Shown piece after piece: positions 128 through 28,435 of a stretch of DNA of 32,009 nucleotides (positions are counted from its first letter, which is position 1; every line of letters begins with the position of its first letter). Location: assembly GCA_021323835.1 (NCBI GenBank), contig JAJPKI010000194.1, positions 1-32,009 of the forward strand, in the 5' to 3' direction. This DNA is from Verrucomicrobiota bacterium. GTDB taxonomy: Bacteria > Verrucomicrobiota > Verrucomicrobiia > Limisphaerales > UBA11358. A program made the position numbers and the translations under genes. The notes under the pieces were generated by a model that ran no database searches, had not been told where the DNA came from, and worked only from the letters and a program-made list of their open reading frames with translations.

Positions 128-2851
128 ATGTCAGGCGTTCGTGTAATTATTATTATTTTTCTTGCGGCAATTTTACCACTGCTAAATCTCAACCGCACAG
201 CGGGTGAGACAATACAAACTAACCCAACTTCGCCTTTGCGAATTGCCATTGGTCAAGCACTACGTCCCGAAGAAGAAAATCATGTGGTTGAAGTGGAAGG
301 CACGGTGACCTTTGTCGGCAGACAAGGGCGCGCCACATATTTTGAAATCAGTTCGGAAGCGGGATATATGCCGGTGACGGTGATTCATGGAGCCGGTTAT
401 TTAACGGATTTACTGTTGAAGAGCCATGTGCGTGTGCGAGGTTTTTGCACAGCTGTGCACAGCAGCACGGATGGAAACATTGTTGGCAGCTTGTCGGCGA
501 CCAACGTAAATGACATTGTGATTTTGCAGTTGCCCGAAGAAATGTGGCAACAATTTCCGCTTCGCACAATTAACGCATTGACCCAAACGAATCTTATTGG
601 GCAAATCGTCCATTTGCGGGGTAAGGTTCAATCCGTGGAATCCGGCCGCTCACTGTTGCTCGTGGATGAAACCGGTCAAACAACAGTTGAATCGAGACAG
701 GCGGTTCCAGAAATGGTTGGTATGGATGTCGAAGCGTTATGCGGATGGCATTTGCGCGGGACAAATAAAATTTTTCAATGCGGATTTTTCCGGCCGGTCA
801 CTGAAACGACAAATCAGACCTCCCTGCCACATTTGACGACGACTGAGCAAATCCGTTGGTTGAAGCCGGACGAGGCAAAACGACAGTATCCCGTTAAGGT
901 GCGAGGCGTGATTACTTTTCTGATGACGCGCCGCGGCGGAATAGTTGGTGGCGATCTCCAGGATGGAACGGGTGGCATTTTTTTGTGGGAGATGTGGAAT
1001 GTAAATTCGGCCATGACCAATTCTGGATTAAAAACAGGAGACTTTTGCGAGATTGAGGGTGTGACTTCGGCGGGCGATTTTTCTCCAATCATTCTTTGTC
1101 GCAAACTGACGATTCTTGGCGAGGGTCAATTTCCCGAACCTGCCCGCCCCAATTGGGATGAATTAATCGGGGGCGGATTCGACGCTCAATGGGTAGAAAT
1201 CCAAGGAAATGTATTGTCAGCGACAAACAGTGATATGGAAATTGGGATGAAAGATGGACGCATTGCGTGTTCACTTCGAGGAAAAGGCGTAGAGCCTTAT
1301 CTTGGTTCAATCGTGCGGGTGCGTGGAACCGTATACGCCTACCATGACAATGCTCGTCATATTACAAACGTATTGATTAACATTCCTTCCCAACAATTCG
1401 TTTCGGTGGAAAAACCAGCACTTGAAAATCCATTTTCAATTCCGGCCACACACGTCAGCGACTTGTTCACTTATAATCCAAATGAATCTGCTTTTCGGCA
1501 GGTTAAAGTCGCGGGGCAAATCATTCATGTGCGCGACGGCGTTTATTTTGCGATGGATGGAACAAACGGTATGCGAGTGGTTCCAAGGGACGGGGCAAAA
1601 ATTAGCGTTGGTGATATGGTCGAAGCCGTTGGATATCCCAATATTGACAGCCCTTTTAACAAACCATTGCTCACTCTGCGCGATGCCGTCGTTCGCAAAA
1701 CAGGTCAGGCATCGTTGCCGGCAGCCATAAAAATTGCGCCGGATGATTTTCTAAATCGCGAACATGATTCAACTTTGGTGAAGATGGAATCCCGTTTGCT
1801 CGGTGTCAGTCCGTATCAAGCCGAACAAATTCTTGAATTGCAAAACGGCACAACAGTTTATCGCGCGCGATTGGACACAGCTTCGGGACAACTTCCGCAA
1901 TTGCGGATTGGAAGTCTTCTGGCCGTGACCGGAGTGTATGCCGTTAGCAGTGACAAATCTGTTCCGTTTGAATTGCTGCTCAATTCTCCGGCTGACATTC
2001 GGATTTTGGAATTGCCATCGTGGTGGACAGCTCAACATACGCTTCTTGTGGTTACAGGTATGGCGTTCGTAATTGTTCTGTTTCTCATTTGGAATGGTGT
2101 CTTGCGTCAGCAGGTCGGCAGGCGCACGATGGAATTATCCTCGGCCAACCAATCGCTCAAAAGCGAAATCACTGAACGCAAGCGGGCGGAAAATGAATTG
2201 GTGCAAACGCGCCTACAACATCTGGTAGAAAAAGAGCGCACACGCATTGCTCGTGATTTGCACGATGATTTGGGAAGCCGCGTCACGCGAGTTGTTTTGT
2301 TGCTCGATGAACTTGCTTTACAAAATCATTTGCCGATTTCGGAAGCTCCTGAACATCCGAAGGGAATTTCGACGGCAGCACGTGAAATCATCCAGTCCTT
2401 GGATGAAACAGTTTGGGCCGTCAATCCGCACAACGACACGTTGCCACATCTGTTTAACTATCTCAGCGATTTCGCCGTCAAATTTCTAAAAGTTGCTAAC
2501 GTGCGATGCCGTCTTGATTTTCCAATTCATCCGCCGGAGCGAATTATTTCCACCGAAGAGCGGCATAATTTATTTCTCGCTGTTAAGGAAGCTCTCAACA
2601 ACGCCGTCCGTCACGCGCAAGCGACGGAAGTTCAACTGCGCGCGACCGTTGGCGAAGAATCTTTGGTTCTAATCATTGAAGATGATGGCTGCGGTTTTGA
2701 ATCTGTCGCCTTTTCTCCATCGGCTGACGGTCTAAAAAATATGCGGCAACGGATGGAAGAAATTGGCGGGCGATTCGACATCACGAGCAAGCCAAAAGTC
2801 GGAACGCAAGTGACATTGACGTTTTTTTGGTCACCGCAAAAACAAATTTAA
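128..2851 (+). CDS. Sensor histidine kinase (HisKA_3 + HATPase_c, NarX/LiaS class) with a large extracytoplasmic N-terminal domain
   Basis: ORF 59..2851. ATG at 128 gives the signal-anchor MSGVRVIIIIFLAAILPLL; a TTG at 59 is an alternative start. Second TM segment is TLLVVTGMAFVIVLFLIWNGVL, followed by a coiled coil (SANQSLKSEITERKRAENEL). H-box is ERTRIARDLHDDLGS. ATPase motifs are KEALNNAVRHA, IIEDDGCGF and GLKNMRQRMEEIGG. Confidence 0.85.
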   Translation: MSGVRVIIIIFLAAILPLLNLNRTAGETIQTNPTSPLRIAIGQALRPEEENHVVEVEGTVTFVGRQGRATYFEISSEAGYMPVTVIHGAGYLTDLLLKSHVRVRGFCTAVHSSTDGNIVGSLSATNVNDIVILQLPEEMWQQFPLRTINALTQTNLIGQIVHLRGKVQSVESGRSLLLVDETGQTTVESRQAVPEMVGMDVEALCGWHLRGTNKIFQCGFFRPVTETTNQTSLPHLTTTEQIRWLKPDEAKRQYPVKVRGVITFLMTRRGGIVGGDLQDGTGGIFLWEMWNVNSAMTNSGLKTGDFCEIEGVTSAGDFSPIILCRKLTILGEGQFPEPARPNWDELIGGGFDAQWVEIQGNVLSATNSDMEIGMKDGRIACSLRGKGVEPYLGSIVRVRGTVYAYHDNARHITNVLINIPSQQFVSVEKPALENPFSIPATHVSDLFTYNPNESAFRQVKVAGQIIHVRDGVYFAMDGTNGMRVVPRDGAKISVGDMVEAVGYPNIDSPFNKPLLTLRDAVVRKTGQASLPAAIKIAPDDFLNREHDSTLVKMESRLLGVSPYQAEQILELQNGTTVYRARLDTASGQLPQLRIGSLLAVTGVYAVSSDKSVPFELLLNSPADIRILELPSWWTAQHTLLVVTGMAFVIVLFLIWNGVLRQQVGRRTMELSSANQSLKSEITERKRAENELVQTRLQHLVEKERTRIARDLHDDLGSRVTRVVLLLDELALQNHLPISEAPEHPKGISTAAREIIQSLDETVWAVNPHNDTLPHLFNYLSDFAVKFLKVANVRCRLDFPIHPPERIISTEERHNLFLAVKEALNNAVRHAQATEVQLRATVGEESLVLIIEDDGCGFESVAFSPSADGLKNMRQRMEEIGGRFDITSKPKVGTQVTLTFFWSPQKQI

Positions 2852-2904
2852 TGACATTTTTCTGAAACGCTATGCGCATTTAAACAATTCTTGTCGACCA
2901 CCTT

Positions 2905-3537
2905 ATGCCCATCACAGTTTCCATTGTCGAAGACGAATTAAAAACGCGCGAAAGTCTGTTGCGGCTTTTAAGTCGCGCGCCCGATGTGCGTTGTCTTGGC
3001 AATTATTCCACAGGCGAGGAAGCGTTGCGTGATATTCCTGTAGAAAAACCAAATGTGGCTTTGGTGGATATCAATCTACCTAAAATGAGCGGCATTGAAT
3101 GCGTCGCGAAGTTGAAAATCAAACTCCCCAATCTTCGTGTCTTAATGCTGACTACTTATGGCGACAGTGACCGGATTTTTGATTCTTTGCGCGCAGGAGC
3201 GACTGGTTATTTATTGAAGAATGCAGGTTATGCCGGATTGATTGAGGCAATTAACGAAGTCCATGCTGGCGGTGCGCCAATGACGGCGCAAGTAGCGCGA
3301 CAAGTCGTGGAACATTTCCATCGCATTCAAAAGCCGTCTTCCGACATGGAAAAATTGACCGCGCGCGAGCAGGAAATTCTTGGGCTATTGGTCAAAGGTT
3401 TTCTTTACAAAGAAATTAGTGAACAGCTAAAAATTTCAATGCCAACAGTCGCCATGCATTCCCGGCATATCTACGAAAAACTTCACGTCCAGTCGCGTGC
3501 GCAAGCCACGGCAAAATTTTACGGACAAGAAATTTAG
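2905..3537 (+). CDS. Response regulator, NarL/LuxR family (receiver + LuxR-type HTH)
   Basis: Receiver motifs: SIVEDE acidic pocket, VALVDINLPKMSG phospho-acceptor Asp, LMLTT, and GYLLK Lys. C-terminal HTH is LTAREQEILGLLVKGFLYKEISEQLKISMPTVAMHSRHIYEKL. Starts 53 nt after the kinase gene. Confidence 0.92.
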   Translation: MPITVSIVEDELKTRESLLRLLSRAPDVRCLGNYSTGEEALRDIPVEKPNVALVDINLPKMSGIECVAKLKIKLPNLRVLMLTTYGDSDRIFDSLRAGATGYLLKNAGYAGLIEAINEVHAGGAPMTAQVARQVVEHFHRIQKPSSDMEKLTAREQEILGLLVKGFLYKEISEQLKISMPTVAMHSRHIYEKLHVQSRAQATAKFYGQEI

Positions 3538-3565
3538 TCAATTGGCGCCTTCTTAGTGTCCTCTG

Positions 3566-3586
3566 CCTATACAAACTGATAATAGA
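3566..3586 (+). promoter_or_regulatory. Copy 1 of conserved 21-nt box CCTATACAAACTGATAATAGA
   Basis: Identical 21/21 to the copy at 7014..7034 and 19/21 to the copy at 5824..5844. Intergenic, ending 124 nt before the ATG at 3711. Contains a GATAAT -10-like hexamer. Confidence 0.5.
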
Positions 3587-3710
3587 CGGTTGGTGATAAA
3601 GTGTTACAACCTTCTGTGACACCTGTGCTCTGACACAAATGGCTACAAGCCGGAGTTATTGTTAATTCCCGCTGATGCACAGAAACAAGGAAACATTAAC
3701 CAAATAAAAA

Positions 3711-4823
3711 ATGAAAATTGATCGAACAATAAAATCCGGTATGACGGCTGGTATTGTAGCGGCATTGATGTTAGGCGGAGTTCATATCGTTCGCGCCAAC
3801 AGCGACAATATTGATGTTGAAAACAATGGCTCTCATAAAACCTACGCCGTTCAAACATTCACTGTTTCAGGTGTGGCTTCTTACACACTCAATGGCGGTG
3901 AAGACAGCGGCAATAGCCAGGAGTATATGGAACGTCTTTACTCTGGTTGCAGTCGGGTTGAACATGACACTGGCCAAACCATCGGCAGTGGTTCCGCCAC
4001 ATTTGATGGATATTTGAAGGTCAATTCACCGATTGACACATGTATCGTCCTGCAATTCTTCGGGTCGGGCGGCCCTTATAGTTTTCTTAGAGTTTACAGC
4101 AGTTATAATTGGAACGGCATATACTATACCGATGGGTGCATTAGCAAAGGAAGTTCGCCCGTCCTAGCTCCTCATATTTATGGCACGTCGGCTCACGTCA
4201 CCGGCGCCATTGATTTCAATGCTGGCACATTGACCTATTGGATTAATGGTTCACAGGTAAGCCAAACGACTCTCGATACATCTCAAACTTATAACATTAA
4301 GTTCGGCAATTACGGTGGAAACACCCAACAGCCGAACGGCAACACAGTGGAGTGGGACAATGCCCGTTGGTGGACTGGTAGTGGCGGCGGTGGTGGATTC
4401 AGCGGCAATTATGAGTTGCGCAACAATGCCAGCCTTTTGTCCTTGAACGTTTCGGGAGCTTCGACGGCCAATGGCGCGGCGATTATTCAGTGGCCATACC
4501 AAGGGGCTAACAACTCATTGTTTTATTTCACCGCGACTGACAGCGGCTATTATCAAATTGTTAATGTCAACAGCGGCAAGGACGTTGTTGTGCAGGGAGC
4601 GTCCACAGCCAATGGAGCGCTTATCATTCAATATCAGTTCGGTTCGTCGCAAAATGACCAATGGCAGCCGCAGCAAAACGGCGACGGCACCTACACATTT
4701 GTCAACCGCCGCAGCGGTTTGGTTCTCGAAGATCCAGGTTCCAATGGGTCACAAGGCACCCAAATGGATCAATGGTCTGGCAACGGCGGTCAGAACCAGC
4801 ATTGGAAATTGTTTAGTCATTAA
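3711..4823 (+). CDS. Secreted protein: N-terminal jelly-roll (ConA/PL7-like) domain + C-terminal ricin-B (beta-trefoil) lectin domain
   Basis: Signal peptide MKIDRTIKSGMTAGIVAALMLGGVHIVRA. Gly linker GSGGGGGFSG. The C-terminal ~130 aa carry repeated QxW-type motifs (IIQWPY, NDQWQP, MDQWSG, NQHWKL) and repeated G(A)STANGA(A/L)IIQ units, typical of ricin-B/CBM13-like lectins. The N-terminal fold call is weaker (YNIKFGNYGG resembles the PL7 YFKAG.Y strand). Confidence 0.8.
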   Translation: MKIDRTIKSGMTAGIVAALMLGGVHIVRANSDNIDVENNGSHKTYAVQTFTVSGVASYTLNGGEDSGNSQEYMERLYSGCSRVEHDTGQTIGSGSATFDGYLKVNSPIDTCIVLQFFGSGGPYSFLRVYSSYNWNGIYYTDGCISKGSSPVLAPHIYGTSAHVTGAIDFNAGTLTYWINGSQVSQTTLDTSQTYNIKFGNYGGNTQQPNGNTVEWDNARWWTGSGGGGGFSGNYELRNNASLLSLNVSGASTANGAAIIQWPYQGANNSLFYFTATDSGYYQIVNVNSGKDVVVQGASTANGALIIQYQFGSSQNDQWQPQQNGDGTYTFVNRRSGLVLEDPGSNGSQGTQMDQWSGNGGQNQHWKLFSH

Positions 4824-4843
4824 TAGCAGAGATTCATACCACG

Positions 4844-4879
4844 ACAACGCGCGATTGGCGAAGGCCGGTCGCGCGTTGT
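4844..4879 (+). terminator. Stem-loop, candidate intrinsic terminator after the lectin gene
   Basis: ACAACGCGCGA (4844-4854) pairs perfectly with TCGCGCGTTGT (4869-4879) around a 14-nt loop. Begins 21 nt after the stop codon. The downstream T-tract is weak. Confidence 0.5.
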
Positions 4880-4920
4880 TGACCGATAAATACTCAAAGA
4901 CACAAACGGCTCGTTGCTTT

Positions 4921-5775
4921 ATGAATTATTTTCAAATTTTGAAAACGCATTCCGTTAAATTGCTTTCGTTGTTGGCTGTAACTTTTATTGCAAGTTGCTC
5001 TTCGCAGATGAAAATGAAACGAGTGTCGTTAGCCGGACTGGCAGTGCAGATACCGATTCCTGCGGCCGCAGCCACATCTACAAACATTGTTGTCAATAAT
5101 TTCGGTCCACTTACGGACACCAATGTTCTCCCAATTCTTTTGACTGCAACAATGGTTAGTCCTGTTGACATAGATTTGAAATGGAGCACGCACATTCCTG
5201 ATGTGGACGGATATTTTGTTGATTTCAATTTCGGTTCCGACCGTAGGTTTCAAATTCTCGACATCAAATATCCCAATGAAACTACTTTTCATCATCCGAA
5301 CTTGATGCCAAATACGCGCTTTGCTTACCGCATCCGTCCTTTTTTCGGCAAACCATCCAATGTAGTCAGCTTTGCCACGGGTGATGCTGCGGATGAACTA
5401 TCGGGTGACGATGGAGTGAGGCCGGGGCAAGTTCCCGCCGGTGCCGGCGGCACAAATTCCATGAGGAATCCATTAACACGAGAAAAATCCGCGCCAACAG
5501 ATTTGACGATTACACGCATTGGTCCACGAGTTGCGGATTTGAACTGGAAAGACAATGCCAGTGATGAAGATGGTTATTTTCTGGAAACTTCTTTGGGTTC
5601 AGACCGGGACTTTCATTTCTTTGGGCTCTTGAAAACAAACACCACCTCATTTCGAGCGTCATTGCTTCCCACAAATACAATCTGTTATTTCCGTGTCCGG
5701 GCTTATTGCGAAGGTTCGCCATCCCTGGCGGTCGAGTTGACCACAGGTAATAAATTGATGACACATCCTCATTAA
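4921..5775 (+). CDS. Lipoprotein with two fibronectin type III domains
   Basis: In-frame ATG at 4921 of ORF 4471..5775 gives a lipoprotein signal MNYFQILKTHSVKLLSLLAVTFIASC (lipobox IASC). Two FN3-like units: VDIDLKWSTHIPDVDGYFVDFNFG...YRIRPFFG and PTDLTITRIGPRVADLNWKDNASDEDGYFLETSLG...YFRVRAY. Confidence 0.75.
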   Translation: MNYFQILKTHSVKLLSLLAVTFIASCSSQMKMKRVSLAGLAVQIPIPAAAATSTNIVVNNFGPLTDTNVLPILLTATMVSPVDIDLKWSTHIPDVDGYFVDFNFGSDRRFQILDIKYPNETTFHHPNLMPNTRFAYRIRPFFGKPSNVVSFATGDAADELSGDDGVRPGQVPAGAGGTNSMRNPLTREKSAPTDLTITRIGPRVADLNWKDNASDEDGYFLETSLGSDRDFHFFGLLKTNTTSFRASLLPTNTICYFRVRAYCEGSPSLAVELTTGNKLMTHPH

Positions 5776-5823
5776 CGGGGTTCACGGGCTGGCGATACAA
5801 TCCGTTACACATCAATTCTTATA

Positions 5824-5844
5824 TCTACACAAACTGATAATAGA
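5824..5844 (+). promoter_or_regulatory. Copy 2 of conserved 21-nt box (TCTACACAAACTGATAATAGA)
   Basis: Matches copies 1 and 3 at 19/21 positions. Intergenic, ending 113 nt before the ATG at 5958. Its 3' half forms the left arm of a 10-bp inverted repeat (5837-5846 / 5859-5868). Confidence 0.5.
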
Positions 5845-5912
5845 GTCTAAAAAAAAACACTCTATTATGCGATTTGGTTTCAGTGGTAAATATTATTACT
5901 GGATGCCTTAAC

Positions 5913-5946
5913 GCCGTCGGACGTTAACTGGGAAACGTCCGGCGGC
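5913..5946 (+). other. 13-bp stem-loop immediately upstream of the 5958 start codon
   Basis: GCCGTCGGACGTT (5913-5925) pairs with AACGTCCGGCGGC (5934-5946) with one G-T wobble and an 8-nt loop. The arm 10-mers recur in the hairpin at 10945-10976. Confidence 0.45.
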
Positions 5947-5957
5947 AATAAAAAATA

Positions 5958-6569
5958 ATGCCAATTAAAATTTCCATCGTGGGAAGCGCCGCGCTGGCTA
6001 ACCCGCCAGCTTCGCCGGAAGGGAAGATTGGAATGCAAATTTCCGATAGGTTTGCCTCCGGGGAAGAAGCTGTTCGCATTATTCCAAGCCGGAACATAGA
6101 TGTTGCATTGGTCAATTATGAACTTCCTTGTATGGACGGCTTTGAATGCGCCAGAAAATTAAAAGCCATGCAGCCGGACTTGTCCGTCCTGATGTTTACA
6201 AATGGCATGCCGACACATTCAAGAGACGAAGATTTTATTTTTCCCGCGTTGCATGCCGGCGCCAATGGTTATCTGCCAGGACATTTGCCGCCAATGGAAA
6301 TGATGGATGCGATTCATCAGGTTCATCAGGCGGCTTGCCGCAGCCGTCATTTATTCCTGATGTATTTTGAGTCAGACCGACAGTTATGCCGCTCGGCGAA
6401 GCATTGGGGAAAGATTACGGGACTGTTGGATTCATCCGCCGCGACAATTCACTATGGCAAAAAGTGGCGGAAAGTTGTCATGCCATTTAGAAAATCTGCA
6501 AAGAAATCTTTCACCTCCTCCTTCGTGCCACTCGTAAAGATTCCTAATAAAGCAATTGCAACCGTTTGA
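5958..6569 (+). CDS. Degenerate NarL-family response-regulator paralog (pseudo-receiver, possibly a pseudogene)
   Basis: Clear paralogy to the regulator at 2905: MPIxxSIV, SGEEAxRxIP, VALVxxxLPxMxGxECxxKLK, VLMxT, AGAxGYL, AIxxVH. The acidic pocket is GS instead of DE. The phospho-acceptor is Asn (AAT 6114-6116) instead of Asp, and the conserved Lys is lost. No LuxR HTH is recognisable in frame. Confidence 0.6.
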   Translation: MPIKISIVGSAALANPPASPEGKIGMQISDRFASGEEAVRIIPSRNIDVALVNYELPCMDGFECARKLKAMQPDLSVLMFTNGMPTHSRDEDFIFPALHAGANGYLPGHLPPMEMMDAIHQVHQAACRSRHLFLMYFESDRQLCRSAKHWGKITGLLDSSAATIHYGKKWRKVVMPFRKSAKKSFTSSFVPLVKIPNKAIATV

Positions 6570-6576
6570 AGACAAA

Positions 6577-6774
6577 ATGCAACAAACTCATTTTCTCGTG
6601 AGCGACGAAACCAAAAAACAAGAGAAGCAGCAACAAATCCGTTTTTCCTTCGTGCAATGCGAAGGATTTCGCTGTCTGGCTTATTTAGACAAAGATGGAA
6701 AATGGCGAAATTGGATGAGTGATTATGAATTAAAGGTGGTTAAAGTTTTAGAAGAAGATTGTCCTCCGGCTTAA
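6577..6774 (+). CDS. Small hypothetical protein (65 aa)
   Basis: ATG at 6577 inside ORF 6556..6774, 8 nt after the previous stop. MQQTHFLVSDETKKQEKQQQIRFSFVQCEGFRCLAYLDKDGKWRNWMSDYELKVVKVLEEDCPPA. No family recognised; supported by ORF only. Confidence 0.35.
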   Translation: MQQTHFLVSDETKKQEKQQQIRFSFVQCEGFRCLAYLDKDGKWRNWMSDYELKVVKVLEEDCPPA

Positions 6775-7013
6775 TTTTTCCGTTTTGAATCGAAAAAATT
6801 CCATGCGACTTCAGTTTCGTCTTCTGCTTGCAGTGCCAAAGGACATTGTAACATTCGGCGGCAAACTCAACGGCGCGTATGCCAGAAATGCCGGCCGTTC
6901 TTACACAAAAACTGCCTATGACCGCGCGCGTCGCCGGCCATATAAAAGCGGCAATTTGCTTCATGTCAACAGTTCGATACGAATTGGAAAGCGGTCATAA
7001 GAAAACTTTCATA

Positions 7014-7034
7014 CCTATACAAACTGATAATAGA
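7014..7034 (+). promoter_or_regulatory. Copy 3 of conserved 21-nt box CCTATACAAACTGATAATAGA
   Basis: Identical to copy 1. Ends 72 nt before the ATG at 7107. The 5' half TATACAAAC recurs at 7059-7067. Confidence 0.5.
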
Positions 7035-7106
7035 ACGCTCGGAGCAAACATCTTAAATTATACAAACATTGTCCCATTTGCAGAAACCAGACTCGAAAAA
7101 TCGTTT

Positions 7107-10100
7107 ATGAAAAACCCCATTCAACGCATGAAAAAAACCGGTTCCAGCCCTTTTTCTCTGGCACAACTAATCACTGCAGTGACTATATTTTTAAGTGTAT
7201 GTGCCGCGAACGTGGCTTCGGCGGCCAATGGTCTTTGGACGGGTGCAAATGTCACCACATCCACCAATTGGAACACGGGCGGCAACTGGAGCGGTGGCAG
7301 TGTGCCGTCGGCGGGTTCTTTTTTATATTTTGGAAAAGCTGGGGCTGGAGGCACGTTGTTGACCAACGACATTGCTGTTAACACGTCATTCGCAGGTATC
7401 ACTTTTTCCAACGCAACAGGTGATGCATTCACATTTCAAGGTAACAGTATCACGCTCACCGGCGGCATTACCAATAATTCAAGTAGTAGCCAGTTAATCA
7501 ACTTTGCCATTGTCAACAATGTGAGCAATACCATTAATGGTGGAAGCGCGGCAATGACGCTTGGTGGAGCAATTACCGGAACGGGCGCGTTAACAAATGT
7601 CGGGACAAGTGTTTTATTTTTAACAAACGGCAACGGCAATGCCTTTTCAGGCGGACTGACCATTAATGCAGGGACGGTATACGTTGGCGCTGGCGCCAGT
7701 GGCAACAGCAGCCTTGGCAAAGGCGATGTAACTGTTAATTCCAGCGGAACATTGATTGCCACCAACGCCGACGGCTTTGGATTTACTCCCGCCAGCAAAA
7801 ATACGCCAAACAATTTTTTCATCAATGGTGGAACGGTTACCAAAACGGCCGGTGTCACCGTGTCGCTTGACGAAAATATCACCTTCAGCAACGGCGGCAC
7901 GATTACAACTCCGGCGGGAGACGCCAATAATTGGACGATATTGGGATTTCAAAATGTTAATGCTCAAAGCCTCATCATCACCACGCTTGCTTCCAGCACG
8001 ACGGCAACCATCAGCCAAGGCGGGACCGGCCTTTGGAATCCCAATAAGCATGCCGTCACTTTCAATATCGCTTCAGGCAGCACGCCCAGCGGAGTGGACT
8101 TGCTGTTTTCAGCCGTTTGGGGCGGTAACCAACCGTTGATCAAAACCAACACCGGCACGTTGAAAATGAACGCCGTGAACACTTCCAGTGCTGTGGTAAC
8201 CAATAGTCAAGGCACGCTGCTTGTCAGTGGATCGTTGGCATCCAGCAGCAAAGTGTATAACAACGCCGTGCTATGTGGTTCCGGCACGATTAATGGACCG
8301 ACGACCAATCTCACCAGCAGTGCGCAAATCAATCAAGAGACAAATTATCTTATCTCCGGCACTGTAGGCACGCTGGCATTTGGCAGTAGCTTGGATATGA
8401 GCGCAGGTGGAACGTGTTCTTTGGATTTAAGCACGTCATCTGGTTCGGGGAATGACAAAATTACGGTGACGAGCGGGTTGACGCTGAACAATAATGTATT
8501 TCACATCAAGGCATTGAGCGGCGTGGCGAACTTGGACACGAGCGCCAATTATATTCTTGTGCAGGCTGGTTCTGTTTCCGGAACGCCCAATCCCACTCCA
8601 GTATGGGATGGCACACCGCCAGCCAATAGCAATCAATTTCAAGTTCATGTTGCGGGCAATAATGTCGTGCTTCAGACGATTGTGAATCCAATCATCTTGT
8701 CAGCCACAGCTACTCCAACAACCGTAACCAATAAACAATCAGTATTGTTGACTGTCACTGTAACGAATGGGACTCCTCTTTATACTATCACAGTGAATGC
8801 ATCTTCGATAGGCGCGCCTTCAAGTGTGGCTCTCGCCTTGCAAGGTGGCGGTGTGACGCCTGGAGTTGGATATGTTTATACTAACACTACAGCGGCCACA
8901 AATGCTGCGGGAGTTTACTCATTGCCGGTCAATGTGGCTGATAGCGGGTCCGGAACGGCCAGCAATAACATTGCGTTAACTGTTACCGAATACTTGACAT
9001 GGAATGGCGATGGCAGCGGCAATAGTTTCTGGGACACCACCGGTGACGTGGAATGGCAGAATGCCCGGGTTTATTCGAATGCTTACACGGTGCGTTTTGA
9101 CGATTCAGTAACGGGTGTCAATGCTACCAATGTCAATTTGTTGGAGACTCTTTCACCGAGCAGTATTGTTGTCAGCAATACTGCTGGAACGCCAACGGCA
9201 AATTACACATTCAACGGCAGCACAGCAACGAATGCGATTTCCGGCACAACAAGTTTGCTCAAACAAGGTTCAGGCGCTTTGACTTTGCAGGAAGGCAGTG
9301 ACAGCTTCAGTGGCGGCATTACTGTGGGCGGCGGTTCGTTGCTTGTTTCCGATAATCCCGGCACCGTGGGCATTTTGGGCGGGTTAACGGTCACCAATGG
9401 TGGCAGCGTGATTCTTGATGAACTTGGCTCAATCTCAGGTGGAATAACAATTGGAAACGCTTCCAGTGTGCAAATTGGCGAAAACGACCAATATGGGCAC
9501 ACGTTTAATGGCATAGTAACGATGGATGGCACGCTGATATTTAATAACTCAATCGGAAATGATGTCTCGGTCGGCAATTTAATTAGCGGTTCTTCGACTG
9601 GGAATCTGGTTCAAAGCAATGCGAACAATGTCACGCTTTCGGGCGCAAGCACCTTTGCGGGCAATGTTACTGTTGACAGTGGAACACTCACTGACACAAA
9701 AGTCGGCGCTGCCGATGGCAGCAACGGTGGTTTGGGGGCTGCGGTAGCCGGCAAAACGGTTACCGTCAATCCTGGCGCGACACTTGTTATTCCTCAAAAC
9801 GTGTTTGGCGGCAACTTGATTTCTGAAGCCAACATGCCTTCCATGATTATCAATGGTGGCATTGTGACCAATAATACTAAGTATACGGCCATTGGCGCTG
9901 TGATGCTGAACAATGGGGCTGTTTTGGTTCAAAGCCCATCCAGCGTGAATAGTTTTCAGGGTTATCAATTCCGCGGCACGATTACAGTTGGAGGCTCTTC
10001 GGCTTCAACCATCTCCACCATGAACGGCACGGATAATCATCTGGATACCAACACAGTTTTCAATGTTGCGGATGCAACCGGCGATTCGGGAGTGGATTTG

Positions 10101-10916
10101 ACCGTGTCAACCGGATTGAGAAATACGTCTCCTGATTTTGGCCAAGTTCCGAGTAGTTTAATCAAGAGTGGCGCGGGCACAATGCTATTGACTGCGAGTA
10201 ATAGCTATACCGGCAACACAACCATCAGTGCTGGCGCGTTAGCTTTGAGTGGTGCTGGTTCTATTTCCAATAGTCCTAACATCATTGTTTCCAGTGGAGC
10301 GACGTTTGATGTTTCCGCGCTTTCACCAGCCTTTATGCTCATGCCAAGTCAAACATTGAGCAACAGCACTTCAACGGCTGTTCTCAATGGCAGCGTTGAC
10401 GCAAGCGCTGGAAAGGTTTCGCTGACTTATGCTTCAGGGACGCCATCGTTTAACGTGGCAAGCGGCACGCTGACGCTAGCCTCCGGAACGACATTCAAAG
10501 TTAACAACACGGGAGCGGCATTGGCGGTGGGCAGTTACAAAATTATTTCCAAAGCTGGCAGCGGCTCGGTGAATGGGACTGCCCCATCGTCAGTGACAGT
10601 TGGCGGGGGCGGTGTTTCCGGGACAGCTTCGCTGCAAATCTCCGGTGGCGAACTGTATTTGGTGGTTGCTGCCGGAACGCCACCAACACCTCATATTACT
10701 ACCTTTCATGTAGTCGGAATGACGCTGACGATTTCAGCAACCAATGGCGCGAACAATGGAACTTATGTGCTGTTCGAAAGCACGAATGTTGCGCTGCCTC
10801 TGACCAATTGGACTCCGGTGTTGACGAACGTTTTTGATGGCAGCGGCAATTTAAATTTGTCCACCAACATCGTAAATCCGAACAACAGCCAGCAATTCTA
10901 CATCCTGTCGCAATAA
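7107..10916 (+). CDS. Giant secreted autotransporter-associated beta-strand-repeat protein (surface adhesin-like), 1269 aa
   Basis: ATG at 7107 inside ORF 6879..10916 gives the signal peptide MKNPIQRMKKTGSSPFSLAQLITAVTIFLSVCAANVASA. It is followed by the family-typical opening ANGLWTGANVTTSTNWNTGGNWSGGSVPSAG. Repeated units include LIKSGAGTMLLTASNSYTGNTTISAGALALSGAGSI. Composition is rich in G/T/S/N. An Ig-like middle segment is present, and the C-terminal domain ends QQFYILSQ. Confidence 0.9.
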   Translation: MKNPIQRMKKTGSSPFSLAQLITAVTIFLSVCAANVASAANGLWTGANVTTSTNWNTGGNWSGGSVPSAGSFLYFGKAGAGGTLLTNDIAVNTSFAGITFSNATGDAFTFQGNSITLTGGITNNSSSSQLINFAIVNNVSNTINGGSAAMTLGGAITGTGALTNVGTSVLFLTNGNGNAFSGGLTINAGTVYVGAGASGNSSLGKGDVTVNSSGTLIATNADGFGFTPASKNTPNNFFINGGTVTKTAGVTVSLDENITFSNGGTITTPAGDANNWTILGFQNVNAQSLIITTLASSTTATISQGGTGLWNPNKHAVTFNIASGSTPSGVDLLFSAVWGGNQPLIKTNTGTLKMNAVNTSSAVVTNSQGTLLVSGSLASSSKVYNNAVLCGSGTINGPTTNLTSSAQINQETNYLISGTVGTLAFGSSLDMSAGGTCSLDLSTSSGSGNDKITVTSGLTLNNNVFHIKALSGVANLDTSANYILVQAGSVSGTPNPTPVWDGTPPANSNQFQVHVAGNNVVLQTIVNPIILSATATPTTVTNKQSVLLTVTVTNGTPLYTITVNASSIGAPSSVALALQGGGVTPGVGYVYTNTTAATNAAGVYSLPVNVADSGSGTASNNIALTVTEYLTWNGDGSGNSFWDTTGDVEWQNARVYSNAYTVRFDDSVTGVNATNVNLLETLSPSSIVVSNTAGTPTANYTFNGSTATNAISGTTSLLKQGSGALTLQEGSDSFSGGITVGGGSLLVSDNPGTVGILGGLTVTNGGSVILDELGSISGGITIGNASSVQIGENDQYGHTFNGIVTMDGTLIFNNSIGNDVSVGNLISGSSTGNLVQSNANNVTLSGASTFAGNVTVDSGTLTDTKVGAADGSNGGLGAAVAGKTVTVNPGATLVIPQNVFGGNLISEANMPSMIINGGIVTNNTKYTAIGAVMLNNGAVLVQSPSSVNSFQGYQFRGTITVGGSSASTISTMNGTDNHLDTNTVFNVADATGDSGVDLTVSTGLRNTSPDFGQVPSSLIKSGAGTMLLTASNSYTGNTTISAGALALSGAGSISNSPNIIVSSGATFDVSALSPAFMLMPSQTLSNSTSTAVLNGSVDASAGKVSLTYASGTPSFNVASGTLTLASGTTFKVNNTGAALAVGSYKIISKAGSGSVNGTAPSSVTVGGGGVSGTASLQISGGELYLVVAAGTPPTPHITTFHVVGMTLTISATNGANNGTYVLFESTNVALPLTNWTPVLTNVFDGSGNLNLSTNIVNPNNSQQFYILSQ

Positions 10917-10944
10917 AGGAGAACGACAGGAATCCTCGAATAAT

Positions 10945-10976
10945 GGCCGTCGGACACGACGTTTTGTCCGGCGGCC
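10945..10976 (+). terminator. Stem-loop, candidate intrinsic terminator after the giant gene
   Basis: GGCCGTCGGACA (10945-10956) pairs with TGTCCGGCGGCC (10965-10976) with one G-T wobble and an 8-nt loop, followed by TCTTT. Begins 29 nt after the stop. Confidence 0.55.
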
Positions 10977-11013
10977 TCTTTAATGAAATGGACGATTTTG
11001 ACGGAGATTTTGA

Positions 11014-11898
11014 ATGAAAATAAGAAGATATAAAAGCGCATTTGGTTTTACGCTAATTGAACTATTAGTGGTCATTGCCATCATCGCCATTCTGGCTGCC
11101 ATGTTATTGCCGGCATTGGCTGCCGCCAAACGCAAGGCGCAAAAAATCAATTGTCTCAGCAATGTCAAACAATTGACGACGTCAGCGTTCTTGTATATGA
11201 ACGATTACAACACCACCATCAATTATGGCGGGAAAGATTCCAATGGAAACTATATCACGTGGCTGGACGCGATAGGTCAGAATATATCCCAAGCCTATGC
11301 AGCGCGGCTGTGTCCAACGGCAAACACGCTCGGTGCTGCCCCATCCTATCTTGGCACCGCCGACCATTGTTATATTACGGCAGGTGGGTCAGCAACCAAT
11401 CCGACTAATTGGATGAGTTACGCTATAAACGGCTGGCTATACGATCCAAGTTCTGGAAATCCAAATCCAACGACTTTTGCTCCTGACACTCCGTCAGGTT
11501 CCTATTATCGAAGGGGCGCAAATATTAAACAGTCCGCCATTACACCTATATTCGCAGATGGAATAAAAGAAGACGGCTGGCCAAATAATAATTCAGTTAC
11601 TGTTGATCCTGCTTCCTATGTTGGCGGCGCCGGAAGCGGCACTGCCGATTTATACAATTCAAATGTCAGCCAACAAGGCATGGCGCGGTTTCTTATTGGG
11701 CGGCATAGTTCATTTTCTGCCAGCAGTGCTCCGCGAAATGCTAGCACTGCCACTGCCGGCAAAAGTGGAACTGTCATTCCGTTGCCCGGCGCAATTAACA
11801 TGGGTTTTGCCGATGGTCATGCCGAAACCATCAAACTTTTCAATCTTTGGAGTTTGGCATGGAGCGGAACGAGTTTTTCTCAAGCACAGCCAAAATAA
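11014..11898 (+). CDS. Prepilin-type N-terminal cleavage/methylation domain protein, H-X9-DG class (pseudopilin-like)
   Basis: N-terminus [54 protein letters not shown] is the canonical type IV prepilin leader plus hydrophobic helix. The C-terminal [13 protein letters not shown] matches the DGH signature of the PVC H-X9-DG family. Confidence 0.9.
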
Positions 11899-11973
11899 TT
11901 GTTGAGCCATCGGAAAGTTCAGTGTGGCAATAGTTTATCCAAGTGCTTTTGAGGTTTGTCTAGCGAAGGCGCA

Positions 11974-13701
11974 ATGAAAAGTTTATTTCTTTCAATTTTA
12001 TTTTTATTCGTAATGACCCAAATTATTTTTGCCCAAGCGGATTGGGTTCACTTCGACAATAGCAGCACACTGGTTTATTCCAACGACAATTTAGGCAATC
12101 ATTTGATTGATTATTCTTACGCCGGTTACAAAAGCGGTGGAGTGGCAATTCCAACCAATATGGCCGCGCAACAAACGATAAGCGTTATCAGTGGCGATAA
12201 CACGGCCAACATTCAGAATGCCATCAATTATGTAGGCACCCTGACACCGGATACGAATGGTTTTCGCGGTGTAGGGTTGCTTAACCCGGGCACTTATGAA
12301 ATGGACGGCACGCTGACGTTCAACAGCAACAACGGCGTCGTCCTGCGCGGTTCAGGAACAAATAATACGACCCTGGTTTTTTATGGGACGAGCGGCACGT
12401 CAATTACTCTATCTGGCGGCGGAGTAAACCATATCAGTGGCGCGACTACTCATTACATCACTGATAGCTACGTTCCGCTTGGCGCAACCAATTTTCATTT
12501 GGATAGTGTTAGCGAATTAGGAGTGGGAACGAACATTGTTGTCGAACGGCCATTTATGGCTGCATGGATTACAGCCATTGGCATGAGCAACCTTTGGGGA
12601 ACAAACACGACCTATTACACAGATGCCGAGCGCAAAATAACCGCCATCAACGGCAATCAGGTGACGGTAGACATTCCATTGCCGACGCCGATAGAATCGC
12701 AATGGACAGTTGGCGACGTATGGCGTTACAAAGACGGTCGTGTGCAACAGTGCGGCGTGGAAAACATGACCGTGTCTTCAAATTTTGGATTGACCAATAA
12801 AGCGCAAAACGGCGGCATCCTGGCAATCAGTTTGGGCAACGCGGAAAATTGTTGGGTTCGCAACATTGCCTTTAATGGTTACGGCGGCGCGGTTTCTTGC
12901 GGTGGAAAATGGAATACGGTTCAAGATTGCACCTTTGTCAATGGACCAAATAACGGCAGCGCGCGACCGGGAGCGTTTGAATTTTACAATGCGCAGTTAT
13001 CATTGATTCAACGCATCACCGGCATTAGTGGGTTCGAGCATTTTTTGCAAACTCGCGACGAAGGCGCCGGTCCAAATGTTTTTCTATATTGCAATACGAT
13101 TGGAACCAATTTCGACAGCGGACCGCATCGGTTATGGGCGACCGGTTTATTAACGGACAATGAATCCGGCACGGTCAACAATATCCATGACGTCATTACC
13201 ACTGGCGGTGGCAACGGATGGGGCGCAGGCTTCAGCGTCTTTTACAACTGCCAAAGCACCAATCACACGATTCAATGTCCTGCAGTCACAAATCATTACA
13301 ATTGGTGGATTGGCGGTTCAGGCGCAAACATCAGCGACCTCGTCAACAATCCGGCAACTTTCGATTACGATGGCACAATGGTCGCGCCGCAAAGTTTGTA
13401 TCTGGAACAATTGAAAGAAAGGCTTGGTGTTCAAGCGGTGGAAAATATCGGCTACACGATTGAATCGCCTCGCATTGCGAGCGTGGTTGTTTCGGACAAG
13501 AATTTGCAGGTAACGGCTTCGAACAATTCTGCAAACTCCAACTGGACTTACTGGACATTATTGCAAAGCACAAATCTTTCGCTGCCGTTAAGCCAATGGC
13601 GGACGGATCGAATCGTAATTTTTAGTGCGAATGGCAATTTGACGACGAACATCATCAACGTCGTGACCAACAGCCAAAGTTTTTATATCTTGAAACAATG
13701 A
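11974..13701 (+). CDS. Secreted right-handed beta-helix (pectate-lyase-superfamily-like) protein, putative glycan-active enzyme, with C-terminal FYILKQ domain
   Basis: ATG at 11974 gives the signal peptide [22 protein letters not shown]. The N-terminal pattern [11 protein letters not shown]...[23 protein letters not shown] resembles pectate_lyase_3/GH55-type beta-helix openings. The C-terminal ~75 aa are homologous to the C-terminus of the giant protein. The gene is solid; the enzymatic class is uncertain. Confidence 0.7.
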
Positions 13702-15929
13702 TTTCAAAAACGACATTCTGTTTCTCCGTCGCAATCTTCTGGTTATGCAATGTCATGGCCGGTGATTTAACGCTTTGGTATCTGCAACCGGCAAAAAATG
13801 AGATCACCGAAGGCTTGCCCATCGGCAACGGAAGCTTCGGCGGATTGATTCTCGGTGCGCCGGAAAGAGAGCGAATTGTTTTGGATGAAGACAGTTTGTG
13901 GACAGGCGATGAAAATCCATCCGGCAATTACGAAACGATGGGCGCTTATCAATTTCTCGGAGATTTGTTCGTCAATTTGCCTGAACACAAAACATTTTCT
14001 GATTACCGCCGCGACCTCGACATTTCTAATTCGCTGGCTCACGTCAGCTACACGGCAAACGGCGTAAAATATCAGCGCGAAATTTTTTGCAGTCATCCGG
14101 CGGGCGTGATGGTGGCGCGATTTACGGCGGACAAACCCGGCAGTTATACCGGCAGCATCGAATTGAAAGATTCGCACGGTGCGCAAACCATCGCCGATGG
14201 AAAAGAATTGGTCTTTGCCGGAGTGTTGACCAACGGATTGAAATATGAATGTCGCCTGATGATTTTGCCTGATGGCGGTTCTGTTTCAACCAATGGTTCA
14301 ACGCTCGAATTCACCAATTGCAACGGCTTCACGTTGTTGCTCGCTGCCGGAACGGACTATGCAATGGATTACGCCAAACATTTTCGCGGCGCCGACCCAC
14401 ACGATAAAATTGTCGCCGAATTAAAATCCGCTTCAGAGAAAAATTACGATGAACTGAAATTCGAACACGTCAAAGATTTTCAATCCCTGTTCAATCGCGT
14501 GAGCGTGGACTTAGGTAATTCATCCGATGCACAACGCGCTTTGCCGACCGACCAGCGCAAAATTGCTGCGGGAAAAACCGTTGATCCGGAAATGGAAGAA
14601 TTGCTTTTTCGATACGGCCGCTACTTGATGATTTCCTGTTCGCGTCCCGGCGGTTTGTCGGCAAATTTGCAAGGGCTTTGGAACGATTCCGACAATCCAC
14701 CATGGCATTCGGATTATCACGCCAATATCAACATTCAGATGAATTATTGGCCAGTGGAAGCGGCGAACCTTTCCGAATGCCAATTGCCGCTGTTCGATTT
14801 GATTGCGAGTCAACTTCCGGCATGGCGCGATGCCAGCGATAAATCGCCGGATTTAAAAGCCCCGTCCAACAAAATGACTGCTCGCGGTTTTGCCATCCGC
14901 ACATCGCACAATATTTTTGGCGGCATGGGTTGGAATTGGGACAAAACCGCGAATGCATGGTATTGCCAGCACTTCTGGGAGCACTTTGCATTTACGCGCG
15001 ACACGAATTTTTTGCGAACGCTTGCTTATCCGGTGATGCGCGAAACGTGTGAATTTTGGGAAGACCATTTGAAGACACTACCGGATGGACGACTCGTCGT
15101 TCCAAATGGCTGGTCGCCGGAGCATGGCCCGATTGAAGATGGCGTCAGTTACAATCAGGAAATTGTCTGGGATTTGTTCGACAATTATGTTCACGCGTCC
15201 GACGTTCTGGGTGTTGACGAAAATTATCGGAATAAAATTGCTGCCATGCGCGACAACCTCGTAACGCCGCACATTGGTAGCTGGGGACAATTGCTGGAAT
15301 GGATGAATGAAAAGCGCGGAACAAATGCCGTTCCTAAAAATCCTGAATTGGACACACTGAACGACCATCATCGTCACACATCTCATTTGTTTGGCGTTTA
15401 TCCAGGCCATCAAATCAGCGTCAACAAAACTCCGGCGTTGGCAAAAGCGGCGAAAGTTTCGCTCGACGCGCGCGGCATCACCGGTGACGTGCGGGAATGG
15501 TCTCTCGCATGGCGTTGCGCGCTTTACGCGCGACTGCACGACGGCGAGGACGCGCACAAAATGGTTCAGGATATGTTTGCCGAACGCGACCCGAAGCGGC
15601 ACGAATATTTTACCTGCCCGAATCTCTTTGGTTTTCATCCGCCGATGCAAATTGATGGTGACTTCGGCATCGCTGCCGGCATTTGCGAAATGTTGTTGCA
15701 AAGCCAGGATGGCGAATTGGATTTGCTGCCCGCATTGCCATCGGAATGGCCGACCGGTTCAGTGAAAGGCTTGCAGGGGCGCGGCGGATTTACGGTGGAT
15801 GAAAACTGGAGCGGTGGAAAATTGGTTTCCGCTACCATTCGCAGTGCCTTCGGCGGAACCGTGAAAGTGCGTTACGGCGACGTTATAAAACAATTGGAAA
15901 TCAAACCCAGCGAAGCTGTGAATTTTTAA
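13698..15929 (+). CDS. Glycoside hydrolase family 95 (alpha-L-fucosidase / alpha-L-galactosidase type)
   Basis: Signal peptide is present. GH95-typical motifs: [28 protein letters not shown]...[27 protein letters not shown], and [26 protein letters not shown]. The start overlaps the upstream stop (ATGA at 13698-13701). Confidence 0.9.
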
Positions 15930-15936
15930 CCGACAA

Positions 15937-18701: not shown

Positions 18702-19091
18702 ATGAAAGGTGTCCATGAAAAACAGATTCCGGCTGTGCAAACGCGGGAAAATTTTTTACAGCCTGATTCAGAAACCGGCAAACGTGAATCCGATCGGCAA
18801 AAAGCGGCTCAAATTATCCGCGCAAAGAATGACGCCGCGACACGTCCGGTTTCGATTAACCTGACCCTTGCCAAAGCGTATTTGCTTGCTGCTGACCCAA
18901 AGTTGATGGAGCGAACCTGGTCGCTTTTGATGGAAGAATTTTGTTCCATCGGCAAAGAATCCACACGGCTGCGCCGGCGTCGGGCAATAAAAAGTTCAGT
19001 TTATGATTCCATCCGAAATAAAAAATTAATTGAGACAACTGGCGATGACCTTCGGCTTGTTCTCAAATCGGGCGGCAACTTTGAACCCTAG
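18702..19091 (+). CDS. Hypothetical protein; possible N-terminal fragment of a tyrosine integrase
   Basis: ATG at 18702 in ORF 18681..19091. The segment LTLAKAYLLAADPKLMERTWSLLMEEF...RRRRAIKSSVYDSIRNKKLIETTGDDLRLVLKSGG resembles, from memory only, the N-terminal core-binding region of PVC-type integrases. No catalytic domain follows. Its stop shares the tetranucleotide CTAG (19088-19091) with the convergent LysR gene. Confidence 0.35.
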   Translation: MKGVHEKQIPAVQTRENFLQPDSETGKRESDRQKAAQIIRAKNDAATRPVSINLTLAKAYLLAADPKLMERTWSLLMEEFCSIGKESTRLRRRRAIKSSVYDSIRNKKLIETTGDDLRLVLKSGGNFEP

Positions 19092-19990: not shown

Positions 19991-20038
19991 ATATGAATCA
20001 AATTCATTTTTTCCATGCGCATTACGCGGAGCATTCAT
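19985..20038. promoter_or_regulatory. Divergent promoter/operator with ATTCAT/ATGAAT half-site array (LysR T-N11-A box)
   Basis: Half-sites: ATTCAT 19985-19990, ATGAAT 19993-19998, ATTCAT 20002-20007 and ATTCAT 20033-20038. ATGAATCAAATTCAT (19993-20007) is a perfect 15-bp palindrome containing T-N11-A (T19994...A20006). ATGCGCAT is a palindrome at 20015-20022. All lie in the 58-bp gap between the divergent start codons. Confidence 0.55.
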
Positions 20039-20048
20039 CGCGCCAAAA

Positions 20049-22464: not shown

Positions 22465-22465
22465 A

Positions 22466-23251: not shown

Positions 23252-23256
23252 TTGCA

Positions 23257-25046: not shown

Positions 25047-25053
25047 TCAACCT

Positions 25054-26583: not shown

Positions 26584-26604
26584 CGACACTGTTCCTCCTG
26601 TCGC

Positions 26605-26630
26605 CGCGCCCGCTCGCAAAAACGGGCGCG
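26605..26630 (+). terminator. GC-rich stem-loop between porin and reductase genes (terminator or attenuator candidate)
   Basis: CGCGCCCG (26605-26612) pairs with CGGGCGCG (26623-26630) around a 10-nt loop. It is preceded by a second small hairpin, GCGACA (26583-26588) / TGTCGC (26599-26604). The T-tract is weak. Confidence 0.4.
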
Positions 26631-26651
26631 CTCTGATTTCCACTAACTGAA

Positions 26652-28433: not shown

Positions 28434-28435
28434 GC

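Follow-up and report, generated by a model that had tools for sequence, protein, structure and literature searches.

Why should a sequence of 21 nucleotides (nt) stand, unchanged or nearly so, in three consecutive intergenic regions beside a single two-component system? The question is raised by a stretch of 32,009 nt from a Verrucomicrobiota bacterium (NCBI GenBank assembly GCA_021323835.1, contig JAJPKI010000194.1, positions 1 to 32,009 of the forward strand), the whole of which is called the window here. The sequence, referred to below as the box, recurs next to the gene of a NarL/FixJ-type response regulator (2905–3537). The original prediction, made from the letters of the window, took the box to be an operator or promoter element for this regulator or for a dedicated sigma factor, tying three transcription units into one regulon. 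We consider it probable that the box is a docking site for the adjacent regulator joined to a weak −35 element, by which the regulator would activate the three units. The argument is built on the recurrence and conservation of the box, on its orientation, on its fixed distance from a −10-like hexamer, and on the way in which four of its bases vary in step with the regulator's recognition helix.

Identification of the box in the window

A search of the whole window located the box, CCTATACAAACTGATAATAGA, in two exact copies on the + strand, at 3566–3586 (copy 1) and 7014–7034 (copy 3). Between them, at 5824–5844 on the + strand, lies TCTACACAAACTGATAATAGA (copy 2), which differs from the box at two positions (19/21 identical). 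No further match with up to three mismatches was found on either strand of the window, and a weight-matrix scan of the whole window, carried down to 9 bits, returned the same three sites only. When the window was shuffled 100 times with its dinucleotide composition preserved, there were 0 box matches compared with the three real copies. This result excludes a chance origin of the repeat, which had already been called implausible in the original prediction.

All three copies are intergenic and point in the same direction as the gene downstream. Their 3′ ends lie 124, 113 and 72 nt before the ATGs at 3711, 5958 and 7107, which open a lectin gene, a pseudo-receiver gene and the gene of a giant PATR-repeat protein, respectively; the search confirmed the copies, their intergenic positions, their shared orientation and these distances as they were first described. 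The element had also been described as a discrete box with unconserved flanks, and an alignment of the three intergenic regions agrees with this description: no extended likeness was seen outside the box, with the exception of TA/ATA just 5′ of copies 2 and 3.

Conservation of the box in related loci

Related loci were collected by fetching contigs around regulators, obtained from a protein search, that are 77–91% identical to the regulator of the window. The set comprises 20 sites in 11 loci: the window, L104, L107, L108, L109, L111, L112, L114, L115, L123 and L125. An alignment of orthologous regions, which the original prediction had proposed as a check, is provided by L104, where the regulator is 91% identical and the locus is collinear with the window at about 78% DNA identity. 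Each of the three intergenic positions holds a box there too, though a variant one (CCTGTGCAAACTCACAATAGG, CCTGCAAAAACTCACAATAGC and CCTGTGTAAACTCATAATAGA). The nine other loci, with regulators 77–90% identical, have one to three boxes each beside the regulator gene. The boxes in related loci precede a lectin, second receiver or PATR gene. The position of copy 1, upstream of the lectin gene, is occupied in L104, L111, L112 and L115; that of copy 2, upstream of the pseudo-receiver gene, in L104, with counterparts upstream of a second regulator gene in L108 and L112; and a box precedes the PATR gene, as copy 3 does, in L104, L108, L109, L111, L112, L114 and L125. Every one of the 20 sites is oriented toward its downstream gene, including that of L109, where both the box and the PATR gene are on the minus strand. 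The consensus of the 20 sites is CCT-R-Y-R-N-AAACT-S-A-Y-AATAG-a, with little or no variation at 13 of the 21 positions; the flanks of the sites, by contrast, cannot be aligned between loci.

Beyond this set, no site of at least 20 bits was found in 1.3 Mb of loci around regulators that are only 24–57% identical. Loci L024–L052, with regulators 47–57% identical, have no box; what they have in common with the window is limited to the kinase core and the regulator, and a 14-mer search of these loci gave no comparable locus-internal repeat. L120, whose regulator is 73% identical with a different helix, also has no box, and a motif of its own was not found by eye. These comparisons indicate that the box belongs specifically to this subfamily of regulators. 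Among 185,579 GTDB species genomes, a scan for an exact 20-mer found no match. In the searchable literature, the motif strings match unrelated human primers only, and nothing describing this regulon was found in the literature on Verrucomicrobia, two-component systems, PATR and glycoside hydrolases. A scan of the JGI metagenomes with a 19-mer, for which about 15 chance hits were estimated, gave 21 single hits; these had a GC content of 0.22–0.52, an unrelated context and no shared flanks, and were set aside as chance matches.

Co-variation of the box with the recognition helix of the regulator

Four positions of the box exist in two states. The A-type box has A4, A6, G13 and T15, which gives TATA-N6-GATA, and the G-type box has G4, G6, C13 and C15, which gives TGTG-N6-CACA. 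Positions 4/15 and 6/13 are dyad partners within half-sites at positions 3–6 and 13–16, and the centres of these half-sites are 10 base pairs (bp) apart, a spacing that would suit a helix-turn-helix dimer. The dyad TGTG-N6-CACA is symmetric, TATA-N6-GATA is symmetric at three of four positions, and several sites break the symmetry. A pairing of position 4 with 15 and of 6 with 13 was also considered and was dropped because the pairs are broken in many sites.

The recognition helix of the window regulator spans I177–I189 (ISMPTVAMHSRHI), and the regulators of the 11 loci belong to two classes by this helix. Class P/A, with ISM-P-TV-A-MH followed by SR or LQ, is found in the window, L107, L109, L111, L114 and L123, and class S/S, with ISM-S-TV-S-MH-LQ, in L104, L108, L112, L115 and L125. 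In the P/A loci, positions 4, 6, 13 and 15 are A, A, G and T in 10, 10, 10 and 9 of 10 sites; in the S/S loci, they are G, G, C and C in 9, 9, 10 and 9 of 10 sites, and L115 has a box with a mixed left half, TATG. The helix class matches the box type in 11 of 11 loci (6:0 vs. 0:5; Fisher p = 0.002, counted per locus). Four regulators (P0022, P0008, P0044 and P0040) were assigned to a class from their protein sequences ahead of any retrieval of the DNA, and the assignment gave the right base at position 13 in all four cases. The GC content of the loci ranges from 0.475 to 0.594 and does not track the box type. Between the window and L104, 4–6 of the 21 box bases differ, which is about the background rate, and identical substitutions are found at all three promoters; such parallel changes would not arise by drift.

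A neighbour-joining tree was built from the regulators without the helix columns. The two classes are polyphyletic in this tree: P0002, which is the S/S protein of L104, is the sister of the window regulator, and P0044 and P0040 form another sister pair. Because the helix-free tree does not separate the classes, the switch of helix and box seems either to have arisen repeatedly or to have passed from one lineage to another. Two of the loci, L109 (P/A, A-type boxes, GC content 0.573) and L112 (S/S, G-type boxes, GC content 0.594), come from the same metagenome, 3300032805.

We also placed the helix residues on two regulators for which complexes with DNA have been solved. In pairwise alignments, P180 corresponds to DosR K179, A183 to NarL K188 and DosR K182, M184 to NarL V189 and DosR N183, and R187 to NarL K192. 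Base contacts in the solved complexes are made by K188, V189 and K192 of NarL (PMC10853779) and by K179, K182 and N183 of DosR (PMC4082495). By these alignments, the residues that vary between the helix classes are predicted to lie at base-contacting positions.

Position of the box relative to promoter-like elements

The 20 sites were aligned on the box, and distances were counted from the box end. All 20 sites have a −10-like hexamer of the form TAnnnT or nAnnnT that starts 19–20 nt past the box, leaving a gap of 18–19 nt. TA is present at 19 or 20 nt in 18 sites, and TAnnnT in 12; the two sites without TA at this place have GATACT and CAGTAT. Examples of the hexamer region are CTATTAT, CTATATT, CTTAAAT and CTAATAA. 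The distance from the box to the ATG varies from 33 to 201 nt, and because the hexamer spacing is fixed whereas this distance is variable, the box is tied to the −10-like element and not to the coding start. At the 3′ end of the box, TAGA (positions 18–21) is conserved in 14 of the 20 sites, and TRG in 19.

If the hexamer is taken as −12 to −7, box positions 18–23 (TAGAnn) are placed at −35 with a spacer of 16–17 nt, and the midpoint of box positions 9/10 is placed at about −42.5. The candidate elements of the three window promoters, all on the + strand, can be given on this basis. Upstream of the lectin gene, the putative −35 is TAGACG (3583–3588; box positions 18–23), which lies 16 nt before the −10-like TACAAC (3605–3610), and transcription is predicted to start at about 3616–3618. 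Upstream of the pseudo-receiver gene, a putative −35 TAGAGT (5841–5846) and the −10-like TATTAT (5863–5868) are separated by a 16-nt spacer, with a predicted start at about 5874–5876; L104 has an identical CTATTAT. Upstream of the PATR gene, a putative −35 TAGAAC (7031–7036) is followed after 17 nt by the −10-like TAAATT (7054–7059), with a predicted start at about 7065–7067. This layout would be that of an activator-dependent promoter. A scan of the window with the sigma-70 consensus did not call these promoters because their −35 is weak.

Two further sequences were noticed near the predicted promoters. In most of the 20 sites, the spacer that separates the box from the −10-like hexamer has a semi-conserved GGAnAAA or A-tract; in the window this is at 3593–3600, 5851–5858 and 7041–7048, about 7–14 nt past each box. 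In addition, TGACACCTGTGC (window 3617–3628) is kept in four of five lectin-gene leaders (also in L104, L111 and L112), at the predicted transcription start. A CAC-N2-GTG dyad is included in it, and it may function as a further operator or as part of the leader.

Several smaller features that had been pointed out in and around the box can be read against this geometry. The three stop codons in tandem, TGA TAA TAG, are indeed present, but they are lost in the G-type box CTCACAATAG and their meaning is incidental. Likewise, the outer inverted repeat CTAT...ATAG exists in the window but is not a conserved dyad, and its centre differs from that of the co-varying dyad. The 5′ half of the box, TATACAAAC, does recur at 7059–7067, on the predicted PATR transcription start, although this is not conserved in L104 or L107; it is either a chance occurrence or an extra half-site specific to the window. 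At copy 2, the 3′ half ATAATAGAGT (5837–5846) is repeated in inverted orientation as ACTCTATTAT (5859–5868), as had been described, but the latter is the −10-like CTATTAT itself.

Proposed mechanism and alternative explanations

From these observations, we propose the following model. Positions 2–17 of the box would form the dimer site of the regulator 2905–3537, with a half-site spacing of about 10 bp that recalls the 7-2-7 geometry of NarL; in copy 1, the half-sites are TATA (3568–3571) and GATA (3578–3581). Positions 18–21 and the next two bases (TAGAnn) would serve as a weak −35, followed after 16–17 nt by the −10-like hexamer, so that the dyad centre would be at about −42.5. In response to a signal, the sensor histidine kinase encoded at 128–2851 would phosphorylate the regulator at D55, and the phosphorylated dimer, bound to the box, would recruit RNA polymerase to three otherwise weak promoters. 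The units switched on would be the lectin and fn3 genes, the pseudo-receiver gene, and an operon of PATR, N_methyl, unknown, GH95 and GH2 genes, that is, a glycan-related set of surface proteins and hydrolases. The part of the original prediction that assigned the box to the adjacent NarL-type regulator and joined the three units in one regulon is supported by the conserved positions and orientation, the fixed −10 spacing and the co-variation with the helix.

Some points weigh against this model. The −10, −35 and transcription-start assignments are read from sequence, and TAGAnn is a poor match to TTGACA in a group, Verrucomicrobia, for which the promoter consensus is not established. The dyad is perfect in the S/S class only, the window class being symmetric at three of its four positions. 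The neighbour-joining tree of a 210-amino-acid protein is not robust, the 11 loci are related and not fully independent, and the copy count covers only the 32-kb window and the fetched loci.

It is rather improbable that the box acts negatively, with its internal SAYAAT (GATAAT in the window) as the real −10 and the regulator sitting on it as a repressor. In all 20 sites, the forms GATAAT, CACAAT and CATAAT retain A2 and T6 of a −10 hexamer, and the link between regulator and box is silent on the direction of regulation. However, hexamer positions 1 and 3 co-vary with the helix, which is unexpected for an element contacted by sigma, nothing is conserved 17 nt upstream of the internal hexamer, and the second −10-like hexamer, fixed at 18–19 nt past the box in all sites, would be left without a reason. 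Two-component regulators beside glycan-use genes are, moreover, usually activators. The co-varying bases and the better-placed hexamer downstream also indicate that the internal GATAAT, which had been singled out as −10-like, is probably not a −10 element. Strict orientation and fixed spacing of two conserved blocks, the first of which poorly matches the sigma-70 −35 consensus, would equally be found if the box and the downstream CTAnnnT formed a two-block promoter of a dedicated alternative sigma factor encoded elsewhere, with an indirect link to the regulator. We regard this as very unlikely: a first block of 21 bp far exceeds the length of a −35, boxes were found next to regulators of this subfamily only, and in all 11 loci the box type follows the recognition helix of the neighbouring regulator. 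The blocks are also unlike the consensus of extracytoplasmic function (ECF) sigma factors (−35 GGAAC-like, −10 CGTC-like). No sigma or anti-sigma gene was found among the scanned genes of the window, and none is on record among the genes called in related loci. The dedicated sigma factor of the original prediction is therefore not favoured, and the co-variation points to the regulator.

There is likewise little reason to expect that the box is bound not by the regulator 2905–3537 but by a different transcription factor, be it the second receiver protein or the product of an unlinked gene. The second receiver protein does carry a GerE helix-turn-helix in L108 and L112, but in the window and L104 it is without both the acceptor Asp and the helix-turn-helix, and boxes are present in L109, L111, L114 and L125 without a nearby second-receiver gene. 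Because its window and L104 versions lack the DNA-binding domain and four box loci lack the gene, the second receiver protein is not considered to be the binder, and the co-variation is with the helix of the first regulator. Least credible of all is a box without a regulatory role, whether as a dispersed repeat of the repetitive extragenic palindromic (REP) or miniature inverted-repeat transposable element (MITE) kind, as a cis-acting RNA motif, or as a product of local gene conversion. Gene conversion would explain why the copies in one genome share the same variant bases, but conversion over 21 nt at three promoters that are not homologous would not follow the helix of a protein through 11 loci. 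A REP- or MITE-like repeat does not fit with only three copies in 32 kb, all in one orientation, and none in the 1.3 Mb of other loci, and the box persists across unalignable flanks and GC contents from 0.475 to 0.594. As for an RNA motif, the six sites that were folded gave z-scores of −1.9 to +0.8, no better than shuffled sequences, with structures that differ, and there was no Rfam match at E ≤ 1 in 2800–7300.

Genes and transcription units around the box

The left 18.5 kb of the window is a single co-directional gene cluster, and all of the genes given here are on the + strand. The cluster starts with the sensor histidine kinase gene (128–2851), the product of which has a C-terminal Pfam HisKA_3 and HATPase_c core. 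Its N-terminal sensor region of about 690 amino acids (window 128–2200) gave only faint OB-fold-like matches, with no Pfam family above the cut-off and no match in a PDB sequence search. The kinase gene always adjoins the regulator gene in the related loci. The regulator (2905–3537), the proposed binder of the box, consists of the Pfam domains Response_reg and GerE/LuxR helix-turn-helix; its best matches in a PDB sequence search are NarL (the best), VraR and DevR/DosR, and an identical regulator was found in two metagenome contigs only. The relatives of the regulator assign the organism to Verrucomicrobiota.

The first target unit (3711–5775) contains a ricin-type lectin gene (3711–4823) and an fn3-domain gene (4921–5775), both assigned by Pfam and gene calls. 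A long open reading frame (ORF) at 4471–5775 runs in a different frame from the lectin gene and shares about 350 nt with it; the start at 4921 chosen by the gene callers removes the overlap. The second unit is the gene of a receiver-only pseudo-receiver protein identified by Pfam (5958–6569). In this protein, Asn replaces the acceptor Asp (VALVNYELP vs. VALVDINLP in the regulator), the acidic pocket is gone, and there is no helix-turn-helix; in alignment, its homologues in L108 and L112 retain the Asp and a GerE domain. The pseudo-receiver is a degenerate paralogue that would be controlled through the box, and it may modulate the system by feedback.

The third unit (7107–18552) comprises the genes of a 1269-amino-acid PATR-repeat protein (7107–10916), a prepilin-type N_methyl protein (11014–11898), an unknown 581-amino-acid protein (11956–13701), a GH95 glycosidase (13698–15929) and a GH2 glycosidase (15937–18552), with families assigned by Pfam. 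The weight-matrix scan found no box in the short gaps between these genes, and their order is the same in L104, L108, L111, L112 and L125; 7107–18552 is probably one operon.

Two other parts of the window may be described here. The 445-nt stretch between the pseudo-receiver gene and copy 3 (6570–7013) is 80% identical to L104, compared with a coding average of 78%. It has small ORFs at 6577–6774 and 6803–7000, and the first 36 residues of the second are kept in L104, after which the frame diverges; the stretch could be a small gene or a non-coding RNA. At about 19 kb, the GC content rises from 0.45–0.50 to 0.52–0.56, and the remainder (19000–32009) is free of boxes. It is an unrelated cluster with a divergent LysR regulator, two NMT1-type binding proteins, an ABC permease, two ATPases, an alginate-export-type porin, a sulfite/nitrite reductase flavoprotein and haemoprotein, and an Fe-S/DmsC-like protein.

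Significance of the box and its two forms

To our knowledge, the promoters and regulator-binding sites of Verrucomicrobia, a group with mostly uncultured members, are almost entirely undescribed. The box offers a concrete, predicted layout of operator and promoter for this group, together with a small defined regulon (lectin, pseudo-receiver, PATR surface protein and GH95/GH2 hydrolases) of a widespread kinase–regulator subfamily. A signal of this kind is in itself ordinary, being expected beside a two-component system, and it is the concerted re-coding of regulator and operator that adds interest. In the two classes, two or three helix residues and four operator bases have changed together, forming a natural pair of specificity variants, and this pair could serve for testing the recognition rules of NarL/LuxR-type DNA-binding domains or for building orthogonal regulator–promoter pairs.

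We suggest, as a tentative view that we do not hold with confidence, that the relatives carry two re-coded, mutually exclusive pairs (P180/A183 with TATA..GATA, and S/S with TGTG..CACA), which appear to have switched repeatedly, each time with every promoter of the regulon in step. If both types coexist as paralogues in one cell, it would be a natural case of operator re-coding that insulates duplicated glycan-sensing two-component regulons, and it would also yield a two-residue, two-base recognition rule for GerE-type helix-turn-helix domains.

Comparison with known systems

One close comparison is with the 7-2-7 sites of NarL, as found at yeaR and ogt of E. coli. Both regulators combine a receiver with a GerE/LuxR helix-turn-helix, NarL is the best PDB match, and the proposed dimer site in the box would, like that of NarL, span about 16 bp with inverted half-sites and abut the −35 from upstream. 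The 7-2-7 site from which NarL activates yeaR has its centre at −43.5, and the class II sites of CAP have theirs at −41.5 (PMC10853779); the centre of the box is placed at about −42.5. The helix positions equivalent to K188, V189 and K192 of NarL would do the reading here as well. However, the box has no TACYYMT; its positions 2–8/11–17 are CTATACA/CTGATAA or CTGTGTA/CTCACAA, and the helix here has P/S, A/S, M and R/Q, compared with S, K, V and K in NarL. The dyad is imperfect in the window class, and the genes controlled would be glycan and surface-protein genes of Verrucomicrobia. The box is not a member of the E. coli NarL site family.

Lux and tra boxes are also elements for GerE-type helix-turn-helix dimers, and the G-type box starts with CCTGT as the lux box does. 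Boxes of the lux/tra type were reportedly described by Egland and Greenberg in 1999 as 18–20 bp long and with a centre near −42.5, so that they overlap the −35 of a weak promoter. The regulators of those boxes have an autoinducer-binding domain, whereas the regulator here has a receiver domain, and lux and tra boxes are near-perfect palindromes (CTG-N10-CAG or TGTG-N8-CACA), in contrast to TGTG-N6-CACA with an asymmetric AATAGA tail. The box is not a lux or tra box. The box of DosR (DevR) in Mycobacterium tuberculosis is similarly an operator of the NarL family, and the contact positions of DosR align with the residues that vary here, but the sequence, organism and regulon differ. DosR binds as a tetramer of two dimers of the C-terminal domain (PMC4082495).

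As for gene content, the hybrid two-component systems that control polysaccharide utilization loci in Bacteroides are similar in that a sensor kinase and regulator stand beside lectin-like, surface and glycoside-hydrolase genes that are expected to be induced. They differ in that the system here belongs to another phylum and consists of two proteins with a NarL-type output, not of a hybrid kinase with an AraC-type output, and its sensor domain is without a match. Judged by these analogies, the proposed mechanism looks like that of an activator site of the NarL/LuxR family abutting a weak −35.

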